DNA of 64,000 nucleotides from Dehalococcoidia bacterium (GTDB lineage: Bacteria > Chloroflexota > Dehalococcoidia > UBA2979), in assembly GCA_965208885.1 (NCBI GenBank), contig CBDBPS010000001.1, positions 297,445-361,444 on the forward strand. The letters are read 5' to 3'. Numbering within the stretch: the first letter of the stretch is position 1; every line of letters starts with the position of its first letter. Under the pieces are notes generated by a model, which had not been told where the DNA came from, made no database searches, and saw only the letters and a program-made list of their open reading frames with translations. The translations under genes were made by a program, and so were the position numbers. Positions 49,344 through 63,957 of the stretch are shown in pieces.

Positions 49344-50417
49344 TTAGCCGGCGCTGCGGCGCTCGTTGTTGTCGGCAGCGATGGCCTGTGTCAGGCGGTC
49401 GATGATGATGGCGAGGAACACGATCGCAAGTCCGGCGATCACGCCGTTGCCGGACTGGTTCTTCTGCAGCGCCCGCAGCACGTCGTCGCCGAGGCCGCCC
49501 GCCGCCACCATGCTCGCGATGGTGACCATGGCCAGCGCCATCAGCGTGGTCTGGTTGATGCCTGCCATGATCGTGGGCAGCGCCATCGGGATCTGCACCT
49601 TCGTCAGCACCTGCCACGGCGACGACCCAAACGCCTGCGCGGCCTCGACCACCTCGGGCGAGACCTGGCGGATGCCGAGGTTGGTGAGGCGGATGACGGG
49701 CGGCACCGCGTAGATGACGGTCGCGAAGATGCCCGCCGGCTTGCCGAGGCCGAAGAACAGGATGCCCGGGAGCAGATACACGAAGCTCGGCATCGTCTGC
49801 ATGCCATCGAGGACCGGGCGCATCAGGCCGTCGGCGATGCGACTGCGGGCGCCCAGCACACCGAGTGGGAACCCGGCTGCGAGCGCGATACCCACCGCGA
49901 CCACCATCAGCGCGATGGTGTCGATGGCGTTGTTCCACAGCCCCATGAAGCCGATGTACAGGAGAGCTGCCGACGTGAAGGCGGTCAGCCTCCAGCGCCC
50001 GACCGCGAACGAGAGCACCGCCAGTCCTGCGATGGCAGCAGGCCAGGGCACCCACCTGAGGACATCCTCGATGGTCACGAGCGCGTGCGTGACCGCGTCG
50101 CTCATGCTGTTGAAGAGCCAGGCGCCTTCTCCGGTCAGCCACTCGACGCCATCGTCGATGGCATCTCCAGTAACTTCCCTGACCGTGCGATCGAGGGTGA
50201 CGGTCCGCGTCCCTGTCGTGGGCGCCTCGGACTGCGATATCGTGGTCGGGAACTCCATCCCTGGGCCCCACACGACCAGGCTGACCACCAGCACGACGAG
50301 CACCGCCATCGCACCAGGCAGCCAGACGTAGCGGGCGCGCAGACTTCCGATCGCGCCACGCTGCGACGGAGCACTCGCCCCGTCAGGACCCTGTCCGGCT
50401 TCGCCGGCGCCCGCCAT
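49344..50417 (-). CDS. proW: Glycine betaine/proline ABC transporter permease
   Basis: BPD-transporter permease signature (EAAQAFGSSPWQVLTKVQIPMALP). Confidence 0.85.
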   Translation of the reverse strand: MAGAGEAGQGPDGASAPSQRGAIGSLRARYVWLPGAMAVLVVLVVSLVVWGPGMEFPTTISQSEAPTTGTRTVTLDRTVREVTGDAIDDGVEWLTGEGAWLFNSMSDAVTHALVTIEDVLRWVPWPAAIAGLAVLSFAVGRWRLTAFTSAALLYIGFMGLWNNAIDTIALMVVAVGIALAAGFPLGVLGARSRIADGLMRPVLDGMQTMPSFVYLLPGILFFGLGKPAGIFATVIYAVPPVIRLTNLGIRQVSPEVVEAAQAFGSSPWQVLTKVQIPMALPTIMAGINQTTLMALAMVTIASMVAAGGLGDDVLRALQKNQSGNGVIAGLAIVFLAIIIDRLTQAIAADNNERRSAG

Positions 50418-51274
50418 CAGCTCGCCTCCGCCGGGGCTGCTCGTAACTCGGCGACGCTCGCCACGTCCTGCACGAAGTCGGCCACGTAGTCGTCGGCAGG
50501 GCGGGTCACGATCTCCTCGGGCGGGCCTTCCTGCACGATGATGCCGTCGCGCATGATCGCGATGCGGTCTCCGAGCTTGATCGCCTCATTGAGGTCGTGC
50601 GTGATGAAGACGATGGTCTTGTGTAGCTGCTTCTGGAGCGTCAGCAGCTCGTCCTGCATCCGCCTTCGGATGAGCGGATCGAGGCCGCTGAACGGCTCGT
50701 CCATGATCAGCACCTCGGGGTCGACGGCGAGCGCGCGCGCGATGCCGACGCGCTGCTGCATGCCGCCGCTCATCTCGCTCGGGTAGTAGTCCTCCCAGCC
50801 CTCGAGCCCGACGGTCTCGATCGCCTCCGCGGCGGCACGGTACCGAGCCTGCTCGTCCACACCCTGGATCTCGAGGCCGTACGCCACGTTGTCGAGCACG
50901 CGGCGATGGGGGAGCAGTCCGTAGTGCTGGAACACCATCGCGATCTTGCTCCGCCGGAACTCGGTCAGCTCCTTCGCGGAGTAGTCCCGGATGTCCTTGC
51001 CATCAAACCGAATCGCACCGCGTGTCGGCTCTACGAGCCGGATCAGGCACCGCGCGAGGGTGGACTTGCCGCTGCCGGACAGTCCCATGACCACAAAGAC
51101 GTGGCCCGCTTCGACCTCGAACGCGACATCACGGAGACCGACCACCGCGCCGAGCTCGTCCTGGATGTCGGCCCTGCTCTTGTCGATATAGGCGGGGTCG
51201 AAGACACGGCTGACGTTGTCGCCGAATACCTTCCACAGGTGCTCGACCTGGATCTGCGGTCGGTCGGGGCTCAT
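50417..51274 (-). CDS. proV: Glycine betaine/proline ABC transporter ATP-binding protein
   Basis: Walker [19 protein letters not shown] signature and Walker B. Start at [18 protein letters not shown] (ATG 51272-51274). The upstream 330-aa ORF extension was rejected. No CBS domains. Confidence 0.85.
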
Positions 51275-51481
51275 GTCGCTCCCACTACACGCGCCGTCCT
51301 GCGCGGACATCCCGCCCTGCCCGGCAATCGACATGCGGTATCGAGTTCCTGCACAGGGTATACCACCGCCGGGGTGTCGCTGCCCCTGTAACGCCACCCG
51401 CGGAGGGCCTCCGGTACGCAGGTTCGCTATCCTCCGCCCGTGCCCCGCACCCACGCAGCCGGGGCCGGATGGAGGACTCAC

Positions 51482-52363
51482 ATGCGCCACTCGACCGCCC
51501 TGCGGAACCGGCTCGGCGGGCCGGGGATCATCGTCCTGCCCGGCGCCTACGACGCGCTCTCGGCGCGGCTCGCGCAGCGCGCCGGATTCGACGCCATGTT
51601 CACCACCGGCTTCGGCTTCTCGGCCGCAGCCCTTGGCGTGCCCGACTACGGACTGCTCACTGCCTCCGAGGTGCTCGACCGCGTCCGCCCCATCGTCGCG
51701 GCCATCGACGTCCCCCTCGTCGCGGACATGGACACCGGATACGGCAACCCGCTGAACGTCGTGCGCACCGTCCGTGAGTGCGTGCAGGCAGACGTGGCCG
51801 GGATCATCCTCGAGGACCAGGAGTGGCCGAAGAAGTGCGGGCACTTCGAGGGCAAGCGTGTCATCCCCGCCGACGAGCACGCACAGAAGATCCGCGCCGC
51901 CGCCGACGCGCGCGGCGACGACGACCTCGTGATCATCGGCCGTACCGACGCCCGCGCCCCGCTCGGCCTCGACGAGGCGATCCGCCGCGGCCGCCTCTAC
52001 CACGAGTCCGGTGCCGACGTCGTGTTCGTCGAGGCCCCACAGTCCATCGACGAGCTCAAGGCCGTGCGTGAGGCGATCCCGGACGCTCCGCTGTTCGCGA
52101 ACATGATCGAGGGCGGCAAGACACCGCTGCTCTCCTCGGCGGAGCTGCAGGACCTCGGCTACTCGATGGTGGTGTTCCCGCTGGCGGCGCTGTTCACGGC
52201 AGCACAGGCGATCGCGGAGACGTACCGCGCACTCTTCGAGGCGAAGACCACGGCCGGCCGCACCGACGCCATGGTCGACTTCCACGAGTTCGAGGAGATC
52301 GTCGGGGTCCCGGACTGGCAGGAGCTGGAGGGCCGCTACGGCATCGGGGAGGACGTGGCCTGA
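51482..52363 (+). CDS. Isocitrate lyase/PEP mutase family protein (2-methylisocitrate lyase / oxaloacetate decarboxylase-like)
   Basis: [17 protein letters not shown] and [13 protein letters not shown] motifs. ATG at 51482. Confidence 0.8.
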
Positions 52364-52375
52364 GTCGTCGGGCGG

Positions 52376-52648
52376 TCAGCTCAGGTTGATGAGCACGAGC
52401 GCCGTGCCGACCACCACGGAACCGATCGTGGCGAGGCCGGTAAGCACACCGACGATCCACATGCCCTGCACCCGCAGTGCCCGGTGCATCTCGGCGGTCA
52501 GCTGCGCCACGGCGAGCTCCAGGTCGGCCTTCGTGACAAGGTCGCTGTGCGCGCCACCGACGACCTCGACGACCGCCTCAGCGGGCGCTTCATCCATGCC
52601 GGCGGCAGTCAGCCGTCCGAATGCCTGGTGCGTGTCGAAGGTGGCCAC
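52376..52648 (-). CDS. DUF1640-like small coiled-coil protein with C-terminal TM helix
   Basis: 90 aa, TKADLELAVAQL...MWIVGVLTGL...TM. A paralog occurs at 62714..62938. Confidence 0.5.
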   Translation of the reverse strand: MATFDTHQAFGRLTAAGMDEAPAEAVVEVVGGAHSDLVTKADLELAVAQLTAEMHRALRVQGMWIVGVLTGLATIGSVVVGTALVLINLS

Positions 52649-52861
52649 GTGCTCACCTCAGGTGCGGCACCATCTTCTTCGATATGTGGAGATACTTGCA
52701 ACATACAATACGGATTCCGGCACGTTATACCCTGCGTGAGGTAACCACGGCCGGAGGGCACCCATGAGCATCCGGCGCGCGACGGGCCGCGGGCTGGGCA
52801 AGCTCTTCAAGTAGCGAGCGCTCAGAGCGCTCGGACCCACGTGCCTCCGGCGTCGGTCAGA

Positions 52862-53101
52862 TCACGCGCCCGTCTTTCGACCGTCCGTCCTCTCAGACGA
52901 CCAGTCCTCGGGCACCAGGCCGTCGCCTACGGTCACGTCCCAGACTCCGCCACCGTTCGCGACCCATTCGTCCCAAGCCGCCTCGTAGGCAGCGCCGAGC
53001 GACCGCTCCTCGGCGCACGCGGGCTCACGGCGTGGGGTCACAGCGTCGGTTGCATCGACTTGACTGGAGCAGCCGTCGTCGATGGATCGTCCGGAAGACA
53101 T
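52862..53101 (-). CDS. Hypothetical small protein
   Basis: 79-aa ORF with strong GC3 bias and non-repetitive composition. No homology recognised. Confidence 0.3.
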   Translation of the reverse strand: MSSGRSIDDGCSSQVDATDAVTPRREPACAEERSLGAAYEAAWDEWVANGGGVWDVTVGDGLVPEDWSSERTDGRKTGA

Positions 53102-53111
53102 GGGGACGAGT

Positions 53112-53600
53112 CTACTGCGACCCCAGGCCGCTGCCCTCCTCCACGTCCGGGGGCACCACCAGCATCGACGCGACGACGCCGTCGACCAGCCGCACCACCA
53201 CTACGTCGCCGACCTCGACCCCGTCGACAGGCGTAATCGCGAACAGGCGGGCCGGGGCGCGGTAGTCGACCGTCGTCGTCGCGTCGTCCGAGGTGATGAC
53301 GAGGCGGCCGGGTGATGACTCGACGACTCGAGCGGCGCGCCAGACCTCGCCCGGCAGCGCGGGCAGGCCGCCGAAGCCGCTGAAGCCGCCTTCCGACAGC
53401 CAACCCTCGGCGGCATCCGCGGCCGACAAGGCAGGGTCGACGATCATCACCTCGATGACCTCAGGCTCGCTCGCCCGCTCCCCGGCCCAGCGGCCGAGCA
53501 CGAGGCCGCCGAGGGCGGCCGCCACGAGCGCGGCGATGGTCACCGCGGCAACCAGCATCCACGGCGCACGCTGCGTCGATTGCTCCGGTCGCGCGCTCAT
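53112..53600 (-). CDS. Hypothetical membrane-anchored protein (N-terminal TM plus extracytoplasmic domain)
   Basis: Hydrophobic N-terminus WMLVAAVTIAALVAAALGGLVLG. Its start overlaps the stop of the upstream gene by 4 bp. Last gene of the permease operon. Confidence 0.5.
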   Translation of the reverse strand: MSARPEQSTQRAPWMLVAAVTIAALVAAALGGLVLGRWAGERASEPEVIEVMIVDPALSAADAAEGWLSEGGFSGFGGLPALPGEVWRAARVVESSPGRLVITSDDATTTVDYRAPARLFAITPVDGVEVGDVVVVRLVDGVVASMLVVPPDVEEGSGLGSQ

Positions 53601-53998
53601 CGCGACGCCTCCGCATTGTTCGCCGGTTCCACCGCGACCACCCCGGTGAGGACGATGCCGAAATCGCCTTGCTCGCCGCCGAGGTTGACAGCGTCGCCGG
53701 GTACGAAGCGTGCATCTGTGACTCGGATCAGTTCCTCGATGCTCATGCCCGGGCCGAGGTCCAGTCCGACGACCCCGCCGAGCGTCTGCAACTCGATGCG
53801 CCCATCGCCCGCCTGCGTGACTTCGCCGGCGATGCGTGTCTCGGTGGGCGGAGGCTGGAGCGGGTGAGTGATGGAGATGTGCCGGTCGTCAGGCGCCGGC
53901 TCGTGTTCGAGCAGGAAGCCCACGACGAGGCCCGTCGCGAAGACGGCGGCGAGGACGAGCGAGGTCGTCGCCACGGAACGCCAGCTCCACACCAACAT
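53597..53998 (-). CDS. Hypothetical membrane-anchored protein (N-terminal TM plus extracytoplasmic domain)
   Basis: Hydrophobic N-terminus SLVLAAVFATGLVVGFLL. Lies 36 nt downstream of the giant permease stop. Confidence 0.5.
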   Translation of the reverse strand: MLVWSWRSVATTSLVLAAVFATGLVVGFLLEHEPAPDDRHISITHPLQPPPTETRIAGEVTQAGDGRIELQTLGGVVGLDLGPGMSIEELIRVTDARFVPGDAVNLGGEQGDFGIVLTGVVAVEPANNAEASR

Positions 53999-54034
53999 CG
54001 CGCCGTCCTTCTCCCTCGATGCTCCCGTAGCGCC

Positions 54035-57000
54035 CTACTGCGTCAGGCGGAGCGAGTCCGGGACATCGCGGCGTAGCACCGCACGCCACGCCGTCCAGAG
54101 CGTGGCGGCAGCCGCGAGGGCGAGCAAGGCGATGCCCGTCGACAGCAAGCGCCACTCGGTCTCGACCGCGAACGCCGGCACCACCGGGTCGCCCGTCTCG
54201 GTCACCTCGAGGAACTGCAACATGAGCCGAGAAATCCAGCGGCCCAGCAGTACCCCGATCACAGAACCGAAGAGCAGCACCACGCCCCACTCGAAGATGA
54301 GCGCGCGGAGCAGCCCCCGGCTCGACGCACCCAGGGACCGGAGCACGGCCAACTCCACCGTCCGACCTTGCAGCGTGATCGCAAGCGAGACGACGAAGCC
54401 GAGCACCGCCGCCCCCATTGCCCCGGCGAACGCGAGCAGCAGGATGCCACTTCCGGACGCCTGCACCGTCGGGTCCGACGCGATCTCGTCGAGGCGCTCT
54501 GCCAGCAGCAGCGGCGCCCCGACTTCGAAGGGCAGCCAACCTCCTTCGCGTGACTGGTCCGCGATCGCCTGCTGCGTCACGAGCGGCACTCCCTCGTCGA
54601 AGTCGACCCAGAGCTCGGTCGGTCTCTGCTGGTCGCGGGACCCGATGGCCCCGGCAACCGCGCGGAGCTGCTCGTAGTCGAGCAGGACGAAGCCCTGGGC
54701 GGGGTCGAGCGTCGGGAACGCCTCGGCGGTACCACGCACGACGAGCGGCACCGCGTAGTCGTCGCCCAGCAGACCGAACGCGCGCTCGCCCGGCTGCACG
54801 CCGAAGCGCGCCAGCGCGTTCTCGCTCAGGATGGCATTCAGCGGCACGTTCGGTCCCTCGGGTGCGATAACGCGCGCGCGGTCGATGATCTCGCGCGTCC
54901 ACGTCCAGCGCGCGGACGTCGTGCCGGATCGGGCTCGCTCGCCCGATGGTCCGAAGGTCTCGGCCGCGCCGGCCTGCGAGTACATCGCCCAGCCGAACCG
55001 GTCCTCGAAGTGTTCGACCACCTCGGGCACGCCGTTCGCGCGCAGTGCAGTCAGATCATCGAAGAAGATCGCGCCGTCGCCGTGGACCAGCACGCGGCGG
55101 TCCTGGAAGCGCAGGCCCGCGAGGGCGAGTGGTGGCGTGAGTCCCGGCGGGAGGTCCGTCCGGAGCTCCGTCCATACCCCCGTCTCCAGCCCGCTGAAGA
55201 TCACGTCGTGGTAGTCGCCGTTGCCGTCGCGGACAGAACCGCGCAGCCGCGCGATCCGCGGCGACTGCTCGGTGTATGCGTAGATGGCGAGCGCCACGGT
55301 GTCGTCGGGCAGCGCGACGCCGCTATCGAGCGGCACGCCGAGGTCGAGGTGGGCGAGCAACTGGTCCGCCGGGACGTCGGCGAAGTCCTCGCGGAAGGAG
55401 AGCATCGAGGCGGCCGACCCACCATGCTGGATCGCGAGCAGCGGCACCGAGCCGCCGCGGGGCACACCGATCGACCCTCGGTGCACCACGACCGCCTGCT
55501 CGACGCCGTCCGTGGCGCGCAGCTGGTCCAGCCCTTCGTGGCCCGACGGGAGGTCGAAGTTCGCGATCGCGGCCCGCAGGTCGACCCCATGCTCGTAGTG
55601 GGCGCGGTCCTCGAACGACCGTGCGACGGTCGGGGCGTACGAGGCGGCGAATGCGCCGACGGCGATGGCGGTGAGCACCAGGAGCAGCAGGCGCGCCCCC
55701 GCGGCCGGGTCGCGGCCCGCGCGGCCGATGCCGAGCGTGACCGCTGTGCCGCGCAGCGGGCTCAAGAGCCAGGCGGCCAGGCGCAGCAATGGAGAGTAGA
55801 CCCGCAACACCATCGCTGCCGCGGCAGCGGTCATCACGAGGGGTGACAGCAGCAGCAGCGGGTCCGCCTGCCAGCCCCCCACGGACTGCGGGTCGAAGAC
55901 CGCGCCGCGACGGTCGAGTTGCCAGAAGAGCAGCGCCGCCAGCGCCACGAGCGCGAGGTCGAGGTAGTAGCGGCGGATCCAGCCGTGTCCGGCCGGGCGA
56001 GCCTGCTCCCGCTTGGCGTCGACGACCGCGCGGCGTACCGCTCCGATGGTCGGGAGCAGCATCGCCGCGAGGGCCAGCGCGGCGCCGCCCGCGGCGAGCA
56101 GGAAGGCATCCTCGTTCACCGACGCCCGCAGCGGCTCGCCGCCGGTGATATCCGAGAAGGCCGGCGTGTAGCCCAGCGCTCCGACGGCGAGCCTCGCGAG
56201 GAGCGGGCCGAGGAGTGCAGCCGGCACGGCGATGAGCAGGCCCTCGGCGAGGTTCAGCCCGAGCAGCTGCGATGTGCTGGCGCCTCGGCTGCGGTAGACC
56301 GCGACCTCCGCGGCTTGCCGCTCACGCGCCAGCGAGGTCACCACGACCAGGTAGAAGCCGACGACGCCTGCCACCTGCAGGAGCAGCAACAGCAACGGCA
56401 CCTGCGAGAACGTACTCGCGTTGCGGAACCGCCCGAGCGCTGTAGCGAACTCGATGCGTCCACCCGCCTCGAGTCCGAGCCCGTCGCGCACGTCGCGCGG
56501 CCAGGCGCCGAGGTCGTCGAGGGCGCGGGGCACGTCGCGCACGGCGAGGCCACCGAGGTCCGCCACGAGACCCACGCGGTAGCGCGACCGCAACTCGGGG
56601 AGCTGCGCTGTGAGCGCGCCGTTGAAGTACGCACCGGAGGTGAGCAGCGGCATGAACTGCGGGCCGTCGTCGGGCTGGCCAGGGCCGCCGGGGACGACCT
56701 CACGATCCTCGAACACCTGCCAGCGCAGGTCTGCCGGGTCGCTCGGTCGCACGAACCCCACAACCTCTGCCTCGATGCTCGAGCGCACGAAGGTGGTGGG
56801 TTGGCACCGCACCTCCTCGGCAGCGACGTTCTCGTCCTCGGAGGCCGGCACACGCCGGCAGTCGTTGAACGACCGGGCGGTCAGTTGCACCCGCTCGCCG
56901 AGGGTGGCTACGCCCCGGAAGCCATCGAGCAGCACCACCTCCGCGGACGTGGCATCGGGCGCCGGGAGGCGGCCGTCGACTACCTCGACGTGCTGCTCGT

Positions 57001-57406
57001 AATCGCCGACGTGGATGAGGCGGGCACTCCACTGCTCCCGCTCGGAGCTGCCCGAGGCGAATCGGAGCGTCAGCGGGTCGGTGCGCTGTTCCGCCAGTAC
57101 CTCGTTGCCGAGCCAGCCAATGCGAGCCTTGGTCACTGCCTCGAATGCGTGCGCCTGTGCGAGCTGCACCGGGTCGGCAAGTCGCAGGCCGTCCACGTAG
57201 AGGTTGGGCACGCGCTTCGCCGGGTCGTCGAGTTCGCGGTCGAGGCGGAAGCGCAGGCCGATGTCGGACATCGCGTCGGTGTAGATGGGCGCCGTGGCGA
57301 GCAGCGTGGTCGCCAACAGCGCGCCGACGGCGAGCAGCAGCATGAGCGCCCAGTTCGACGCGAAGCGTCGCAACGCGAACTGCCAGACGGAGAAGAGCTC
57401 ACCCAC
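54035..57406 (-). CDS. ABC transporter permease, FtsX/MacB-type, giant (1123 aa; two FtsX four-helix domains plus large extracytoplasmic regions)
   Basis: N-terminal TM after NWALMLLLAVGALLATTLLA. An internal FtsX region (VPLLLLLLQVAGVVGFYLVVVTSLARERQAAEVAVYRSRGAS) and a C-terminal FtsX region (AVLRSLGASSRGLLRALIFEWGVVLLFGSVIGVLLG). Confidence 0.85.
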   Translation of the reverse strand: MGELFSVWQFALRRFASNWALMLLLAVGALLATTLLATAPIYTDAMSDIGLRFRLDRELDDPAKRVPNLYVDGLRLADPVQLAQAHAFEAVTKARIGWLGNEVLAEQRTDPLTLRFASGSSEREQWSARLIHVGDYEQHVEVVDGRLPAPDATSAEVVLLDGFRGVATLGERVQLTARSFNDCRRVPASEDENVAAEEVRCQPTTFVRSSIEAEVVGFVRPSDPADLRWQVFEDREVVPGGPGQPDDGPQFMPLLTSGAYFNGALTAQLPELRSRYRVGLVADLGGLAVRDVPRALDDLGAWPRDVRDGLGLEAGGRIEFATALGRFRNASTFSQVPLLLLLLQVAGVVGFYLVVVTSLARERQAAEVAVYRSRGASTSQLLGLNLAEGLLIAVPAALLGPLLARLAVGALGYTPAFSDITGGEPLRASVNEDAFLLAAGGAALALAAMLLPTIGAVRRAVVDAKREQARPAGHGWIRRYYLDLALVALAALLFWQLDRRGAVFDPQSVGGWQADPLLLLSPLVMTAAAAAMVLRVYSPLLRLAAWLLSPLRGTAVTLGIGRAGRDPAAGARLLLLVLTAIAVGAFAASYAPTVARSFEDRAHYEHGVDLRAAIANFDLPSGHEGLDQLRATDGVEQAVVVHRGSIGVPRGGSVPLLAIQHGGSAASMLSFREDFADVPADQLLAHLDLGVPLDSGVALPDDTVALAIYAYTEQSPRIARLRGSVRDGNGDYHDVIFSGLETGVWTELRTDLPPGLTPPLALAGLRFQDRRVLVHGDGAIFFDDLTALRANGVPEVVEHFEDRFGWAMYSQAGAAETFGPSGERARSGTTSARWTWTREIIDRARVIAPEGPNVPLNAILSENALARFGVQPGERAFGLLGDDYAVPLVVRGTAEAFPTLDPAQGFVLLDYEQLRAVAGAIGSRDQQRPTELWVDFDEGVPLVTQQAIADQSREGGWLPFEVGAPLLLAERLDEIASDPTVQASGSGILLLAFAGAMGAAVLGFVVSLAITLQGRTVELAVLRSLGASSRGLLRALIFEWGVVLLFGSVIGVLLGRWISRLMLQFLEVTETGDPVVPAFAVETEWRLLSTGIALLALAAAATLWTAWRAVLRRDVPDSLRLTQ

Positions 57407-57500
57407 GACGATAGTCTAGGCACGCAGGCGCGCCACGGGCACGGGCGCCTTCATGCCGCCGGTGCAGCGGTCGAGTCGATCCGCCCGTAGAATCACCGAC

Positions 57501-60500
57501 GTGCGGCACTTCCGTTCGCTCCCGGTGATCGTCATCCGCCGCATGCTCGGCAACTGGCGCCTGCTCGCCAGCGTCATCATTGGCACGCTCATAGCCGGCG
57601 CGATCCTCGCCTCCACGGTCATCTACGCCGACGCCATTCGAGACCTCGGCCTCTCCCATGCACTCGAGGCCGAGTCCGCTCACGACCTCGATGTGCGCGT
57701 ATCGCAGACCAACATCGCGATCCGGGGACCGCTCTACGAGCAGTCTCGGGCGCGTATCGACCGGATGGTCGATGCATCGCTCGGCGAGGCGCGCGGCGCC
57801 GCGGTGCGCCAGGGCACGACAGCCACCTTCTACCCGAGCGCCCCGGGTGGCGCACCGGACCTGGATAACGACGCGCGCCCGCGCGCCAATCTGCGCTTCC
57901 GCTCTGAGCTCCTCGATCACGTCACGCTGGCTGCCGGCGCTATCCCGTCGGCGCGCGGCACGGCCCCCGACGGCGCGATCGAGGCGCTGCTGGGCGCCGA
58001 GACTGCTCGCGCGAACAGCATCGGGCTCGGAGACCGCTTCCACCTCCACGCGTCGTGGAGCGCAGATATCCCGCCGCTGACCGTCGAGGTGGTCGGCCTG
58101 ATCGAGCCGAACGATCTGCGGGCACGCTATTGGGGCGGTCGCACGGACCTGCTCGACTCGCAGACGGCTTCGTGGCCGACATACCTGTTCTACGTGTCCG
58201 ACGAGACGTTCTTCGGCACTCCGGCCCAGGCAGTGCCCTCGATGACCGCACGCTACCTCGATGTCTACCAGGTCGAGCGGGAGCTCCTGAACTCACGGGT
58301 TGCCGAGGGCGTGGCCGTAACGCTCGAGCGCATCGAGGGACGGCTCGGCGCAACCGAGACGCTGCTGCGCGTGGAGACAGACCTGCCGCGTGTACTCAAC
58401 GACTTCGACGACAAGCTGTTCTTTGTGCGCATCCCGCTGTTCGTGCTGCTGCTGCAGATCGGCGGCGTCGTGGCCTACTACCTCCTCGTCGTCTCGACGA
58501 TGCTGCTGGAGCGGCAGGCCGAGGAGATCGCGACGCTACGCAGCCGCGGCGCGACCACGGCGCAGCTGCTGACGCAGTACGGCATCGAGGGAGCACTCCT
58601 CGCCACCCTTGCCGTCGCGGCGGGGCCACCGATCGCTGCGACCGCAATCGCGGCGCTCGGACCGACGCCGGCGTTTTCCGACCTGTCAGGCGGCGCACCC
58701 CTCGACGTCCACCTGTCGGGGCTGTCCTTCCTGCTCGCGGGCGGCGGCGGGCTGCTCGCATTCGTCTCGTTCATGGTTCCGGCGTGGCAGGCGACACGCG
58801 AGACGGTCGTGGGCTTCAAGCGCAACGCCGCGCGGCCCAGCCGGCAGTCGTTGTTCCTCCGCTACTACCTCGACGTCGCGCTCGTCGTGGTGCTCGGCAT
58901 CGTGTTCTGGCGACTGCGGCGCGAGGACAACCTCTTCGATGAGCCGCTGTTCGGCGATCCACACGCCGATCCGTTCCTGCTCGCGACGCCGGCGGTGGCG
59001 ATGCTGACGGTCGGGATCGTCTTCCTCCGGCTGTTCCCGATCGTGCTCCGCCTCGTCGCGTGGCTCGTCGCGCGCGGCGCCGGCGTCGCGCTGCTCGTCG
59101 GCACACGCGCGCTGGCGCGCAATCCGACGCACTACGCGCGGCTGATCCTCATGTTGATGCTCGCCACGGGCGTCGGCATGTTCGGCGCGACGTTCTCTGC
59201 CACGCTCGACCGCTCCTACGACGATCGCACCTACTACACGGTGGGCGCGGACATCCGCGCGAGCGAACTGCGCGCCCTCGCCCGCCAGGGGGACGACGCG
59301 TTCGTCGCAGCCCTCGGCACGGTCCCCGCGCAGGTCGCGAGCCCCGTCATCCGCGAGGGCGGCTCCATCAGCGCGAACGGCGGGAATGCCCGCCTCGAGG
59401 TGCTCGGTGTGGAACCCGACACCTTCGGCAAGGTGGCATGGTTCCGCTCCGACTTCGCCGATGGCTCCCTCGACGCGATGCTCGAGGACCTCGCGGGGAA
59501 CGCCACGACGGTGGAGTACGCGACGCTCCCGGTCGACGCTCGCCAGTTCGGGATGTGGGCGAAGCTGGAGGATGTCCGGGCGCGGATGGACCTGCTCGCC
59601 GTCTTCCAGGACGCGCGCGGCCAGATCGTAACGGGCTGGCTCGGCTCGGTGAGTCCCACCGACGAGGCAACCGAGGAGTGGCGCTTCTTCTCCATCGACC
59701 TCCAGCAACTGCGAGGACGCACGGGCCGCTCGCTGGCTGCGCAAGTCGATCCGCCCATCGCGCTGCAGTCGGTCATCGTCTACACGCGGAGCACGATCGG
59801 AGCGCAGCGAGGCGTGATGCTGCTCGGCCCGGCGATGACCTCATCACTGCCACCCGCGCGGCCGTTCGAGCGTGGCCGGCCGGCGCACGCCGACGCACCG
59901 TTCGATGGCGCGACCCTCGTCCACGTGTTCACCGAGCCGGGCTTCGAGGTGCTGCAGGGCACCCTCCAGCGCCGCGTCGACGATCGCATCAGGGCGGACG
60001 GCGACGCCCCGCCGGGCTTCGCCTCCTCGCTGCGCTACGAGTGGCTCGACGAAGTGCAGCCGACTTCACGTCGTGGGATACGGCAGGCGATCCCGGAGGG
60101 CCGCACACTCGTCTACCTCTCGAGCGATACCGCGCGACGGCTGGCGGTCGAGCCGGGTGACGACGCCGTCCTCAACGTCAGCGGCACGCACATCGAGGCC
60201 ACGTACGGCGGTTCGTTCGACCTCTTCCCGACGTTCGACGCGAACAGCAGCACGGGCTTCGCGATCGTGCACGCAAGCCGCCTCCAGGTGGACGCAAACG
60301 CTTCGCTCCCGAACACCACGCTGGCGTACAACGGCGCCTGGGTTGCCTCGGACGACCTGCCCGCCAGCCGCACGGCGCTGGCGGCGTACGATCCACGTGT
60401 GCTCCTGGACATCGAGGGGGAGCGAGCGCGACAGGAGGAGGACCCGCTGATCGCAGCGGGCTGGGAAGGGATCCTCGCGATCTCGTTCGCGGCGGTGTTG

Positions 60501-60884
60501 CTGCTATCCGCGATCGGGTTCCTGATCTACTCGTACCTGACGGCACAGCAACGACGCCTCGAGTTTGCGGTGCTGCGTACGCTGGGCTTCTCGCGCGTCC
60601 AGATCTTCGGGGTGGTGCTGCTGGAGCACCTCTTCGTGGTCCTGGCGGGGATGGGGCTCGGGACCGTTGTCGGCTTGCAGGTGGGACGGCTCATGATGGA
60701 CTTCTTCAGCGTCGACGAGACGGGCGCCGAGGTGCTCCCGCCGTTCGCCCTCGCCGTGTCGCAGTGGGAGGTGGTACTGGTGTGGGGCATCCTGGGAGCT
60801 GTGTTCGTGCTGACCGTGCTCGCCGTCGTGCTGCTCTACGCGCGCCTCGCGCTGCACCGTGCGCTGCGGGTGGGTGACGCGTGA
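57501..60884 (+). CDS. ABC transporter permease, FtsX/MacB-type, giant (paralog of 54035..57406)
   Basis: Same architecture (IPLFVLLLQIGGVVAYYLLVVSTMLLERQAEEIATLRSRGAT ... AVLRTLGFSRVQIFGVVLLEHLFVVLAGMGLG). GTG start at 57501, chosen by alignment to the paralog N-terminus. Its stop overlaps the ATPase start. Confidence 0.85.
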   Translation: MRHFRSLPVIVIRRMLGNWRLLASVIIGTLIAGAILASTVIYADAIRDLGLSHALEAESAHDLDVRVSQTNIAIRGPLYEQSRARIDRMVDASLGEARGAAVRQGTTATFYPSAPGGAPDLDNDARPRANLRFRSELLDHVTLAAGAIPSARGTAPDGAIEALLGAETARANSIGLGDRFHLHASWSADIPPLTVEVVGLIEPNDLRARYWGGRTDLLDSQTASWPTYLFYVSDETFFGTPAQAVPSMTARYLDVYQVERELLNSRVAEGVAVTLERIEGRLGATETLLRVETDLPRVLNDFDDKLFFVRIPLFVLLLQIGGVVAYYLLVVSTMLLERQAEEIATLRSRGATTAQLLTQYGIEGALLATLAVAAGPPIAATAIAALGPTPAFSDLSGGAPLDVHLSGLSFLLAGGGGLLAFVSFMVPAWQATRETVVGFKRNAARPSRQSLFLRYYLDVALVVVLGIVFWRLRREDNLFDEPLFGDPHADPFLLATPAVAMLTVGIVFLRLFPIVLRLVAWLVARGAGVALLVGTRALARNPTHYARLILMLMLATGVGMFGATFSATLDRSYDDRTYYTVGADIRASELRALARQGDDAFVAALGTVPAQVASPVIREGGSISANGGNARLEVLGVEPDTFGKVAWFRSDFADGSLDAMLEDLAGNATTVEYATLPVDARQFGMWAKLEDVRARMDLLAVFQDARGQIVTGWLGSVSPTDEATEEWRFFSIDLQQLRGRTGRSLAAQVDPPIALQSVIVYTRSTIGAQRGVMLLGPAMTSSLPPARPFERGRPAHADAPFDGATLVHVFTEPGFEVLQGTLQRRVDDRIRADGDAPPGFASSLRYEWLDEVQPTSRRGIRQAIPEGRTLVYLSSDTARRLAVEPGDDAVLNVSGTHIEATYGGSFDLFPTFDANSSTGFAIVHASRLQVDANASLPNTTLAYNGAWVASDDLPASRTALAAYDPRVLLDIEGERARQEEDPLIAAGWEGILAISFAAVLLLSAIGFLIYSYLTAQQRRLEFAVLRTLGFSRVQIFGVVLLEHLFVVLAGMGLGTVVGLQVGRLMMDFFSVDETGAEVLPPFALAVSQWEVVLVWGILGAVFVLTVLAVVLLYARLALHRALRVGDA

Positions 60885-61861
60885 CACTCGATCGCCCCGA
60901 CCCGCGTATCAGCGACGACGAGCAGCCCTACATCCGCTGCGAGGACGTATTCAAGATCTACAAATCCGATGAGCTCGAGGTCGTGGCTCTACGCGGGCTC
61001 GACCTCGAGGTCTACCGCGGCGAGATGATGGCGCTCGTCGGAGCATCCGGCTCCGGCAAGAGCACGCTGCTCAACATCTTCGCCGGCCTCGATCAGGCCT
61101 CGGCAGGGCACGTCGAGGTCGGCGGTCGCGACCTGCTCACCACCCCGACCGAGGAGCTGGTCGACTACCGCCGCACCGAGGTGGGCTTCGTCTGGCAGCA
61201 GACCGGCCGCAACCTCATCCCCTACCTCGGCGCCCGCGAGAACATCGAGTTACCAATGCTGATCGAGGGCGTCTCGCGGGGCGCCGCGCGCGACCGCGCC
61301 CGCGAGCTGCTCGGACGTGTCGGTCTGGCCGACAAGGAGCGCAACCGCCCAGACCAGCTCTCGGGCGGCGAGCAGCAGCGCGTCGCCATCGGCGTCGCGC
61401 TCGCCAACGACCCACCGCTGCTCCTGGCCGACGAGCCCACGGGCGAACTCGACAACGCCACGGCCGCCGAGGTCTTCGATGTCTTCGAGGAGCTGAACGA
61501 GCAGATCGGCGTCACGATCGTGATCGTCACCCACGACGCCTCGATCATCGACCGGGTGCACCGCATCGTCGCGTTCCGCGACGGCAAGACGAGCGCTGAG
61601 ATCGTCCGCCGCTCCCGCTTCACTCGTGACCACGACCAGGATGTCGATGAGTATGCGATCGTCGACCGCAGCGGGCGGCTGCAAGTCCCGCGTGAGATCG
61701 CCGAGCACCTCGGGCTCGGCATGCGAGCACGCGTCGCCCTCGTCGACGACCACATCGAGGTACGCGCCGACGAGGGCGCGCTACTGGGTCCGCCGATCCC
61801 CGGGCTGTCGGATGAGACGCCGCCGGAGCCGCCGCGCGCGCCACTGCGAGGCGCCCCGTGA
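60881..61861 (+). CDS. ABC transporter ATP-binding protein (MacB/LolD-like) with a C-terminal extension of about 100 aa
   Basis: Walker [26 protein letters not shown] and Walker B LLLADEPTGELD. The GTG start overlaps the permease stop. Confidence 0.85.
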   Translation: MTLDRPDPRISDDEQPYIRCEDVFKIYKSDELEVVALRGLDLEVYRGEMMALVGASGSGKSTLLNIFAGLDQASAGHVEVGGRDLLTTPTEELVDYRRTEVGFVWQQTGRNLIPYLGARENIELPMLIEGVSRGAARDRARELLGRVGLADKERNRPDQLSGGEQQRVAIGVALANDPPLLLADEPTGELDNATAAEVFDVFEELNEQIGVTIVIVTHDASIIDRVHRIVAFRDGKTSAEIVRRSRFTRDHDQDVDEYAIVDRSGRLQVPREIAEHLGLGMRARVALVDDHIEVRADEGALLGPPIPGLSDETPPEPPRAPLRGAP

Positions 61862-62583
61862 CGCCCGCGCTCGTCGAGGTGCGCGACGTCAATCGCAGCT
61901 TCGAGCTGAGCGGCACCGTCGTACGCGCCGTCCGCAACGTCACGCTCGACATCGACCGCGGCGAGTTCGTGGCGCTGCGCGGCCGTTCGGGCTCCGGGAA
62001 GACCACGCTGCTCAACCTCATCGCCGGCCTCGACCGCCCCGACAGCGGCACCGTGCACCTCGCGGGCGAAGAGGTCTCGGCAGCGAGTGAGTCACGACTC
62101 ACCGATCTGCGCCGCCACAGCATCGGCTTTGTGTTCCAGTCGTTCGCCCTGCTCCCGCTCTTCTCGGCGCGCGAGAACGTGGGGCTGGCGCTGCGCATCG
62201 CGGGGGTACACGGTCGCGCCGCGCTGGAGCGCGCAGGCGAGCTCATCGAGCTCGTCGGGCTCGGGCCACGCGCCGACCACCGCCCGTACGAGCTGTCGGG
62301 CGGCGAGCAGCAGCGCGTCGCGATCGCGCGCGCGATCGCGAATGACCCACCGCTGCTCATCGCCGACGAGCCGACGGGCGAGCTGGACTCGGCGACCGGC
62401 GCGCAGATCTTCGAGCTGTTGCAGTCGATCAGTGCCGGGGGCACCACGGTCATCGCCGCCACCCACGACCCGCTGATGATCGAGCACGTCGGACGCATCC
62501 TCGAGATGGCGGATGGCGAGCTGGTGTCCGAGACCGCGGGCACGCCCGAGGAGTGGGACCGGCCGGGACCGCGATCCGGATAG
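61858..62583 (+). CDS. ABC transporter ATP-binding protein (second, tandem)
   Basis: Walker A GRSGSGKTTL, LSGGEQQRVAIARAI and LLIADEPTGELD. Overlaps the upstream ATPase by 4 bp. Confidence 0.85.
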   Translation: MTPALVEVRDVNRSFELSGTVVRAVRNVTLDIDRGEFVALRGRSGSGKTTLLNLIAGLDRPDSGTVHLAGEEVSAASESRLTDLRRHSIGFVFQSFALLPLFSARENVGLALRIAGVHGRAALERAGELIELVGLGPRADHRPYELSGGEQQRVAIARAIANDPPLLIADEPTGELDSATGAQIFELLQSISAGGTTVIAATHDPLMIEHVGRILEMADGELVSETAGTPEEWDRPGPRSG

Positions 62584-62660
62584 CAGCCCCTCTGCCTCAC
62601 GATTCCCATCGCGCGTTCGCGGGCCGAACTATCCGATTCTTTATATTCAGCGAATTACTA

Positions 62661-62696
62661 TTGACACGCGCACCTCTGCGAAGCACATTGTGAGTG
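62661..62696 (+). promoter_or_regulatory. Candidate sigma70-type promoter (TTGACA-17 bp-CACATT) in an AT-rich spacer
   Basis: TTGACA at 62661-62666 and CACATT at 62684-62689. A gaaggga RBS at 62698-62704 precedes the GTG at 62714. Confidence 0.35.
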
Positions 62697-62713
62697 CCGA
62701 AGGGACACGGCTC

Positions 62714-62938
62714 GTGACTTCGCAGACGCGGCGCTTGTTGAACGCGGACTTCAGCGACGTACAGGCTGAAGCCATTGACGATTCCATCACTGACGCCACA
62801 CGCCATCTCGCGACAAAGGCTGACCTATTCGCCGTACGGGCGGACCTGTATCGCGCGATGTGGTTGATGGGGCTCAGCAGTATTGCGATCAACGCCGCGA
62901 TGCTGAGCGCCGCAGTCGCGGTCATCCAGTTGACCTAG
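62714..62938 (+). CDS. DUF1640-like small coiled-coil protein with C-terminal TM helix (paralog of 52376..52648)
   Basis: TKADLFAVRADLYRAMWLMGLSSIAINAAMLSAAVAV parallels the other copy. GTG at 62714 after the RBS; the upstream ORF extension is low-complexity. Confidence 0.45.
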   Translation: MTSQTRRLLNADFSDVQAEAIDDSITDATRHLATKADLFAVRADLYRAMWLMGLSSIAINAAMLSAAVAVIQLT

Positions 62939-63000: not shown

Positions 63001-63957
63001 CTACGCGCCGTCACCATCCCCGCGATGCACTACCGGCAACACCTCTTCGATCAAGCGCCGTGTCTGCTCCATCAGCGCATCGTCGCCCTCCGCGATGGGG
63101 CGCACGACGAACTTGGTGACGCCGACGGCCACGTACTCCTCGACGCGACGGACGATGTCGGACGCGTCGCCGACCGCGAAGTGGTCCCTGGGGTCGGGGC
63201 GGTCCTGGACTGCCAGGCGGCCGAAGGCCGACGTGGCGCGCTCGACCTCGGGCTCGTCCCAGGAGCCGAAACGGTACGTGATGTTCGCGCCGTAGTGGTC
63301 GTCAGGGATGCGCTTGCCCTGCCGCGCCGCCTCCTCGCGGATCGACGCGACGACGGGCGCGACCTGCGCCGGCGTCTGCAGACCGCCCAGCCAGCCGTTG
63401 CCGTAGCGCACCGTGCGGCGGATCGCCGCCCGGCTGGAGCCGCCGATCCACAGCGGCATCGGCTGCTGCACCGGCGTCGGGGCGACCGAGGCGTGGGCGA
63501 CGCGGTAGTGATCGCCCTCGAACGTCACGCGCTCGCCGCGCCACAGCGCGGTCATGATCTCCAGCGCCTCGTTCGACCGCGAGCCACGCCCGCTCGCCTC
63601 GCGGCCGGTCGCGGCCCACGCCGGTGAGGCGTTGCCGCCGACGCCGAAGGCCGGGAGCAGCCGACCGCCGCTGAGGAAGTCGATCGTCGCGCACTCGGCG
63701 GCCAGTGCAATCGGGTCTCGCAGCGGCAGCACGACGACGTTCATACCGAACTTGAGCCGCTCCGTGGCCCCGGCGAGCGCGGCCATGAGACTCATCGTCT
63801 CCAGTTGCGGGCGCGGCGAGGCATCACTGGCCAGCAGCCGGTCCGACTGCCACAGGGAGTCGACGCCGCCGTCCTCGCACAGCTCGACCCAGCGCCAGAA
63901 CGCACGCGTCGAGGAGAACGGAAACGCGGCCATCCCAAGCCCGACACGCACGCTCAC
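63001..63957 (-). CDS. LLM class (luciferase-like) flavin/F420-dependent oxidoreductase
   Basis: TIM-barrel LLM features, a glycine-rich FGVGGN region and length of about 320 aa. Confidence 0.75.
   Translation of the reverse strand: MSVRVGLGMAAFPFSSTRAFWRWVELCEDGGVDSLWQSDRLLASDASPRPQLETMSLMAALAGATERLKFGMNVVVLPLRDPIALAAECATIDFLSGGRLLPAFGVGGNASPAWAATGREASGRGSRSNEALEIMTALWRGERVTFEGDHYRVAHASVAPTPVQQPMPLWIGGSSRAAIRRTVRYGNGWLGGLQTPAQVAPVVASIREEAARQGKRIPDDHYGANITYRFGSWDEPEVERATSAFGRLAVQDRPDPRDHFAVGDASDIVRRVEEYVAVGVTKFVVRPIAEGDDALMEQTRRLIEEVLPVVHRGDGDGA

Follow-up and report, generated by a model that had tools for sequence, protein, structure and literature searches.

A pair of fused, YbbP-like type VII ABC permeases in two conserved gene modules of Dehalococcoidia

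The 64,000-nt stretch of a Dehalococcoidia genome analysed here (contig CBDBPS010000001.1, 952,886 bp, of a Chloroflexota metagenome-assembled genome; hereafter the window, in whose positions all coordinates are given) contains, between 52376 and 62938, a locus for an ATP-binding cassette (ABC) system. Its centre is formed by two divergently transcribed permease genes, PermA and PermB; PermB is followed by two ATPase genes, ATP1 and ATP2, and PermA by the genes of two small single-pass proteins, smA and smB (Table 1). Comparison with related genomes revealed two conserved, anciently separate modules, PermB-ATP1-ATP2 and PermA-smA-smB, which are joined in the lineage of the window. An earlier inspection of the letters and open reading frames (ORFs) of this DNA, here called the sequence-only reading, had called the same genes at the same positions, and the ORF coordinates also bear out the three 4-bp overlaps it had listed (PermB/ATP1, ATP1/ATP2 and smA/smB) and the 94-bp spacer between the permease genes.

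The permeases and their divergent spacer

PermA and PermB are paralogs with 28% identity over their full length (E 2e-74), and the product names in NCBI are "FtsX-like permease family protein" or "ABC transporter permease". Two stretches of each protein match the Pfam family FtsX (PF02687; 54.5 bits for PermA and 73.7 bits for PermB, cutoff 25.5). Hydropathy predicts 10 transmembrane (TM) helices per permease, and an AlphaFold2 model of PermA, built from 60 homologues (mean predicted local distance difference test (pLDDT) score 85.1, predicted template modelling score 0.76), agrees with this. ORFs, Pfam matches and TM prediction thus support the initial description of two divergent permeases of about 1100 amino acids (aa) with two FtsX domains each. 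According to both hydropathy and the model, ectodomains of ~275–290 aa and ~380–415 aa lie between TM1 and TM2 and between TM7 and TM8, respectively, so that a large ectodomain of the MacB/LolC-like (Porter/Sabre) fold follows the first helix of each 4-TM unit. In PermA, the first ectodomain (ECD1) covers approximately residues 44–318 and the second (ECD2) residues 607–985, the latter with an all-beta insertion of ~160 aa (~697–861). No Pfam family matched the ectodomains. Two cysteines in ECD1 of PermA, Cys183 and Cys201 (56804–56860, minus strand), are invariant in the 60 homologues, down to 32% identity, and probably form an extracytoplasmic disulfide.

Searching the PDB with the PermA model using Foldseek, we found YbbP as the first match (9ge6_A, E 1.4e-15; 9ge7_A, E 9e-14; ~1140 aligned columns), followed by BceB, MacB, Spr0695, LolC/E, YtrF and HrtB. 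Because of this ranking and the matching topology, we regard the fold class of the permeases as settled: they are fused, YbbP-like members of the type VII (MacB-fold) ABC superfamily. The sequence-only reading had started from the premise that FtsX permeases have 300–650 aa and a single FtsX domain, which is wrong, as duplicated FtsX permeases include YbbP, BceB and the ADOP family; its suggestion that a double-FtsX giant matches no characterised system lacks support as well, given that Escherichia coli YbbP shows this topology and is the best structural match. Nor is the "giant" size alone peculiar to Dehalococcoidia, because double-FtsX permeases of more than 1000 aa and low identity occur also in Thermomicrobiales (P0232, 1100 aa) and in Micromonospora (P0239, 1061 aa).

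Both permeases share two coupling-helix motifs, ERQAxExAxxRSRGA (at residue 362 in PermA and 337 in PermB) and RxxExAVLRxLG (1015 and 1018, respectively). Most residues of both motifs are invariant inside the PermA family as well as inside the PermB family, and the two coupling helices of each permease are not identical to each other.

The spacer between the two genes contains two short conserved boxes. TAGACT is located on the minus strand (57413–57418), 6 nt before the GTG of PermA, and TAGAAT on the plus strand (57488–57493), 7 nt before the GTG of PermB. The ORF of PermB opens at 57453, and the alignments of its homologues begin at the GTG at 57501. When the spacers of 12 loci were aligned, TAGAAT was present in all 12 and TAGACT in 10, with TAAACT in the other two, and the rest of the spacer was variable. 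Since these −10-like boxes sit 6–7 nt before the GTG starts, they suggest back-to-back promoters and leaderless mRNAs for PermA and PermB. A generic scan for sigma-70 promoters and terminators found nothing.

Table 1. Features of the ABC locus and its flanking genes in the window
Feature	Position	Strand	Description
DUFa	52376–52648	−	90 aa, tail-anchored CCDC90-like (DUF1640-like) protein; neighbour outside the conserved system
smB	53112–53600	−	162 aa, single-pass protein; 4-bp overlap with smA
smA	53597–53998	−	133 aa, single-pass protein; N-in anchor at residues 8–33
PermA	54035–57406	−	1123 aa, fused type VII ABC permease; 10 TM helices
Divergent spacer PermA/PermB	57407–57500		94 bp; two conserved −10-like boxes
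PermB	57501–60884	+	1127 aa, fused type VII ABC permease; 10 TM helices, two ectodomains
ATP1	60881–61861	+	326 aa, LolD/MacB/FtsE-type ABC ATPase with C-terminal extension; 4-bp overlap with the end of PermB
ATP1 C-terminal domain	61646–61765	+	ATP1 residues 256–295; probably AbrB/MazE/MraZ-like (swapped-hairpin type)
ATP2	61858–62583	+	241 aa, LolD/MacB/FtsE-type ABC ATPase without extension; 4-bp overlap with ATP1
DUFb	62690/62705–62938	+	~82 aa from the GTG at 62690; shortened tail-anchored DUFa paralog; neighbour only

The genes on either side are unrelated to the system: to the left a ProV/OpuA-type ABC importer ATPase (50417–52285, minus strand), of which only the C-terminal ~290 of 622 aa look real, and to the right a luciferase-like oxidoreductase, probably F420-dependent (63001–63957, minus strand). 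In P0155 (1611 aa, a JGI gene call), a PermA homologue aligned at 84% coverage is joined to a region of the "putative transcriptional regulator" family PF02622, through either a true fusion or an error of gene calling.

Conservation and linkage of the two modules

The comparison set consisted of ~85 Dehalococcoidia loci; 78 of them came from a scan of species-representative genomes for PermB and were screened by tblastn with the proteins of the window. Hundreds of PermB homologues (1107–1159 aa) were found, and their sources are without exception Dehalococcoidia or Chloroflexota metagenomes. Of the 78 loci, 68 continue beyond the end of PermB, and all of these contain the complete series PermB, ATP1 with its tail and ATP2, down to 37% PermB identity. 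The two ATPase genes invariably neighbour one another and PermB, in most cases with overlaps or short gaps.

The position of PermA relative to this operon differs between loci. Where PermB identity is 72% or higher, PermA, smA and smB are arranged as in the window. At ~52% identity, seven loci (L016, L018, L020, L036, L041, L044 and L047) again have PermA divergent from PermB, with smA and then smB on the opposite strand, convergent with PermA. The ~40 remaining loci with several kb of upstream DNA have no PermA near PermB; PermA homologues of 40–46% identity are found elsewhere on the same contigs or in the same metagenome-assembled genomes. There, PermA is followed by a convergent operon encoding a 181-aa protein, smA (119–126 aa) and smB (148–170 aa), and no ATPase gene was found within 8 kb of it. 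On contig JAWLHV010000002.1, the PermB and PermA modules (L037 and L081) lie ~85 kb apart. The same arrangement of PermA and small proteins surrounds PermA relatives of only 32–35% identity.

Altogether, PermA, smA and smB adjoin the PermB operon in ~22 loci, in two gene arrangements, and form an unlinked unit at 7 other places examined, in 5 distinct arrangements. The small proteins accompany PermA in all of the ~29 PermA loci examined, down to 32% PermA identity, and neither was seen apart from it; an ATPase of PermA's own was found in none of these loci. At least ~20 contigs, including the one just mentioned, carry both permeases. Co-conservation of the permease pair, at the level of the genome, and the association of the small proteins with a permease were points on which the sequence-only reading had staked its case, and on both the comparison came out in its favour; its view of the locus genes as a functional unit is likewise supported by conservation and linkage. 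In other lineages, both modules are found among housekeeping genes (polA, hflX, queD-like).

Two additional genes were noticed in loci where the modules are apart. A gene of ~190–200 aa, without Pfam match, begins 1 nt after ATP2 where PermA is unlinked (L084:12093–12662, plus strand; L085:12038–12649, plus strand; ~45 other loci); wherever PermA is adjacent, the window included, ATP2 is not followed by this fourth gene. The 181-aa protein, encoded directly upstream of smA in unlinked loci (L079:12395–12940, L081:12333–12878, L082:12346–12891 and L086:10612–11157, all on the minus strand), is cytoplasmic, retains 54–78% identity across lineages, belongs to no Pfam family and has no homologue in the window. 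Its cysteine pattern, CPRCG...CPRG.(D/E)CD...C(E/D)(S/A/E)CA, is zinc-ribbon-like.

ATPases, small anchored proteins and flanking genes

ATP1 and ATP2 share 45% identity and both contain the Pfam domain ABC_tran. Their best NCBIfam matches are LolD, MacB, FtsE and YbbA (E 1e-55 to 1e-65), all under the equivalog cutoffs, and both fall into the LolD/MacB/FtsE subfamily, to which the cognate ATPases of the type VII superfamily belong. Walker A, Q-loop, the signature LSGGEQQR, the catalytic glutamate of Walker B and the H-loop are kept in both (65–68 orthologues), from which we conclude that both ATPases are catalytically competent, with neither site degenerate.

A C-terminal extension, which had been put at about 100 aa, distinguishes ATP1 from ATP2; it measures ~85 aa and is present in all loci with ATP1. 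Its core is strongly conserved throughout these loci, with the consensus DEYAVVDRSGRLQIPREYL..L.I..RARV.L..DHVEVR, and reads DEYAIVDRSGRLQVPREIAEHLGLGMRARVALVDDHIEVR in the window (residues 256–295). Scanning 20 orthologous tails one by one, we obtained matches to the Pfam families MraZ (16 of 20, best E 1e-4) and MazE_antitoxin (12 of 20, best E 2.5e-4), none of which exceeded the gathering scores. An hhalign comparison with seven AbrB, Abh, SpoVT, MazE, Kis, Sso7c4 and MraZ sequences, entered by hand, gave a probability of 93.8% (E 1.7e-7). A phmmer search against 1.84 billion representatives returned only 65 matches, mostly short fragments, which neither connect the tail with canonical AbrB proteins nor indicate a wider distribution. 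The tail is probably, though short of proof, an AbrB/MazE/MraZ-like domain. Domains of this type are obligate dimers, and because only ATP1 carries one, a regulatory or complex-bridging role is an attractive speculation; in the literature, a search for ABC ATPases that carry such a domain yielded nothing relevant. Outside the system, six separate stretches of P0384 (702 aa) match the tail motif, and P0392 and P0400 match it twice each; these may be repeat proteins of AbrB/MraZ-like units.

smA and smB are two small N-terminally anchored proteins, the second overlapping the first by 4 bp, as described before. Each has one N-terminal TM helix, and because positive residues precede this helix, most of either protein is expected on the outside. 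smA and smB are distantly related paralogs (hhalign probability 94.6%, E 6.7e-8). smA contains a conserved HEPxxD right after the TM helix and the C-terminal motif VNVG..FG..LTGVV, and smB differs by an inserted loop (~62–83) with a near-invariant GGFTGFGG. An AlphaFold2 model of smB (pLDDT 71.5) shows a long TM helix (12–43), the loop at low confidence and a small five-stranded beta-barrel (91–149). The 178 matches of the smB family are "hypothetical protein" throughout, neither Pfam nor NCBIfam recognises a domain in smA or smB, and PDB sequence-profile searches with both gave nothing meaningful; the dTor matches of smA are designed repeat proteins. Of the MacA-like and LolA-like folds that the sequence-only reading had proposed to look for in the small proteins, model and Foldseek show neither for smB, and the identities MacA, LolA and NfeD were dropped for it. 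A MacA/HlyD membrane fusion adaptor, as in MacAB-type pumps, was thus not found among smA and smB by Pfam and NCBIfam searches or in the smB model.

The conserved genes are flanked in the window by DUFa and DUFb, described originally as inverted DUF1640 paralogs. The two are indeed paralogous (34% identity over 79 aa, E 1e-6), lie in inverted orientation and each end in a TM helix, but only the left one is DUF1640-like, and below the cutoff. DUF1640 is now named CCDC90-like in Pfam (PF07798); DUFa reaches 19.5 bits (E 9e-4, cutoff 33.5), with matches in five of nine aligned family members (best E 6e-7). DUFb has no match to PF07798 and is tied to DUFa only through their identity; its annotated 141-aa form, overlapping ATP2, is probably too long. 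An AT-rich stretch in this 70% GC genome (62620–62692) contains TTGACA (62662–62667) upstream of the DUFb GTG. Among the 78 genome loci, DUFa was found in four (L002, L003, L009 and L010) and DUFb in three (L002, L003 and L010), all of them closest relatives of the window, and relatives with 72–74% PermB identity and an identical core have neither.

Proposed mechanism, rival explanations and known systems

We propose, with moderate confidence, that the locus encodes a Dehalococcoidia-specific, YbbAP-like ABC system of the mechanotransmission type: a heterodimer of ATP1 and ATP2 would serve both permeases, and smA and smB would act as outside partners of PermA. PermB would be a pseudo-dimeric 10-TM permease whose two coupling helices dock the heterodimer, so that ATP1 and ATP2 would each contact one of the two non-identical halves of the same chain, and the AbrB/MazE-like tail of ATP1 might regulate or dimerise the complex. 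PermA, which lacks an ATPase of its own and has the same coupling-helix motifs, would borrow ATP1/ATP2. smA and smB might sit on the PermA ectodomains, comparable to the extracytoplasmic partners MacA, LolA, EnvC and TesA elsewhere. Powered by ATP binding and hydrolysis, the enlarged ectodomains would then make large movements. Such movements would serve to pull a hydrophobic or envelope-associated substrate out of the outer leaflet or to actuate the partners, and not to transport a solute through the membrane.

Several results weigh against this proposal. The ties of PermA to ATP1/ATP2 and of smA/smB to PermA are drawn from gene linkage, other LolD-type ATPases may be encoded elsewhere in the genome, and the asymmetry of the coupling helices, being common to PermA and PermB, could predate their duplication. 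NCBIfam models do not place the permeases in a named family: with the YbbP model NF041854 (ABC_perm_YbbP), whose cutoff is 999 bits, PermA scored 19.4 and PermB 14.6 bits, the ADOP model TIGR03434 gave 32.4 and 38.5 bits against 622, and neither permease reached the LolCE cutoffs. The probable AbrB assignment of the ATP1 tail draws on sub-threshold Pfam matches and on the hhalign comparison with hand-entered sequences, and a PDB sequence-profile search with the tail was negative. Foldseek of the smB model against the PDB returned nothing below E 0.5, the nearest structures being SH3-like barrels. At the locus there is no TesA-like, MacA-like or LolA-like partner, and nothing points to the substrate.

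The main rival, which we judge rather unlikely, assigns one homodimeric ATPase to each permease, ATP1 to PermB and ATP2 to PermA or the reverse, and thereby sees two independent transporters of the YbbA2-YbbP or BceA2-BceB pattern. The numbers of permeases and ATPases, the complete catalytic motifs of both ATPases and the fact that all solved fused type VII systems have a homodimeric ATPase (PMC12646458; BceAB PDB entries) would fit it well. However, ATP1 and ATP2 stay together beside PermB even where PermA is ~85 kb away, no ATPase travels with PermA, and two non-identical coupling helices per permease suit a heterodimer. The lack of a linked ATPase in most lineages could also mean that PermA works without any, as an orphan scaffold or receptor with smA and smB, unrelated to PermB-ATP1-ATP2 and next to it by chance; the "orphan" duplicated FtsX permeases of the ADOP family, to which the weak TIGR03434 match leads, are a precedent. 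Coupling-helix residues that remain mostly invariant in 60 homologues, down to 32% identity, are hard to understand without a nucleotide-binding partner, and the two modules stand side by side in ~22 loci in two different arrangements; we consider an orphan PermA improbable, and a lesser rival than independent homodimers.

Less probable still is an exporter for resistance to antimicrobial peptides or drugs, similar to BceAB or MacAB. BceB and MacB are significant structural matches and some homologues are named "antimicrobial peptide transport system permease", but neither a BceRS-type two-component system nor a MacA/HlyD adaptor is encoded nearby, two large ectodomains are present versus the one of BceB, and conservation in the sampled Dehalococcoidia to 37% PermB identity, in core-genome contexts, is unlike that of accessory resistance genes. 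Hardly any credence remains for the cassette of the sequence-only reading, in which the inverted DUF1640-like genes would mark the ends of a mobile or exchangeable unit. Paralogous flanks in inversion, shared by the three or four closest relatives, gave rise to this idea; yet these flanks are missing around the identical core of relatives at 72–74% PermB identity, both modules occur among housekeeping genes in other lineages, and DUFb has its own promoter-like region. An inverted-repeat search detected no border repeats beyond those from the paralogous coding sequence, GC is uniform across the window (68–72%), no integrase, transposase or other mobility signal was found in the locus, and PADLOC reported only generic ABC-ATPase cross-matches there, with no defence-related signal.

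Beyond the proposed YbbAP-like system with a shared heterodimer, one may imagine the PermA and PermB complexes within a single envelope machine, with one shared type of ATP1/ATP2 motor, AbrB-like half-barrels tying the complexes together, smA/smB as a new class of partners whose GGFTGF loop acts as a plug or substrate handler; the whole would be a Dehalococcoidia-specific system that builds or maintains the unusual cell envelope of these bacteria. We regard this extension as improbable.

Type VII ABC systems perform mechanical work in the envelope, such as the release of lipoproteins, the activation of cell-separating amidases or the extraction of lipids, and to our knowledge, with every further member that was characterised, another partner and another function came to light. 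The family described here is conserved over a large group of uncultured Dehalococcoidia with poorly known envelope biology, for which our literature search found no mention of FtsX-type permeases. If the ATPases are indeed shared, two transducers would run on one motor, which would be unusual. The significance is nevertheless lower than first estimated, because the double-FtsX architecture is known from YbbAP and BceAB and because no clue to the substrate was found.

In kind, the system is already known, namely as a type VII ABC system similar to YbbAP. E. coli YbbP, described in 2025, has 10 TM helices, with periplasmic domains inserted between TM1-2 and TM7-8 and coupling helices between TM2-3 and TM8-9 (PMC12646458), and associates with YbbA and TesA in a YbbA2:YbbP:TesA ratio of 2:1:1 (PMC12646458; PDB 9ge6/9ge7). 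The fused 10-TM chain, the places of ectodomains and coupling helices and the LolD/MacB-type ATPase are all shared with YbbAP-TesA, at an identity between PermA and YbbP of only ~13% in the structural alignment. Unlike YbbP, PermA and PermB are ~320 aa longer, with enlarged ectodomains and the ~160-aa beta insertion in ECD2; unlike the YbbA homodimer, there are two distinct ATPase genes in all loci extending past PermB, one with the putative AbrB-like tail; the system includes a paralogous second permease that has no ATPase of its own; and in place of the hydrolase TesA there are two small anchored proteins with a predicted beta-barrel. Neither within the locus nor in its flanks did we find a gene for an SGNH hydrolase or a TesA-like protein.

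Other relatives are further removed. Bacillus subtilis BceAB (PDB 7tcg/7tch) has one ectodomain in BceB (TM7-8), a BceA homodimer and BceRS, none of which applies here, and neither a histidine kinase nor a response regulator is encoded in the locus or its flanks. LolCDE, MacAB and FtsEX share the FtsX-domain fold, the ATPase subfamily and the dependence on an extracytoplasmic partner, but their permeases are separate 4-TM chains, assembled as homo- or heterodimers, with a single ATPase gene, and their partners LolA, MacA and EnvC are unrelated to smA and smB. The ADOP family resembles PermA in that its duplicated FtsX permeases often lack an adjacent ATPase; we know of no paired small anchored proteins in that family. 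What appears new is therefore the combination: a presumably heterodimeric ATPase pair on a fused permease, a probable AbrB-like ATPase tail, an ATPase-less paralogous permease, two small anchored paralogous proteins of no known family as its likely partners, and enlarged ectodomains with a beta insertion.

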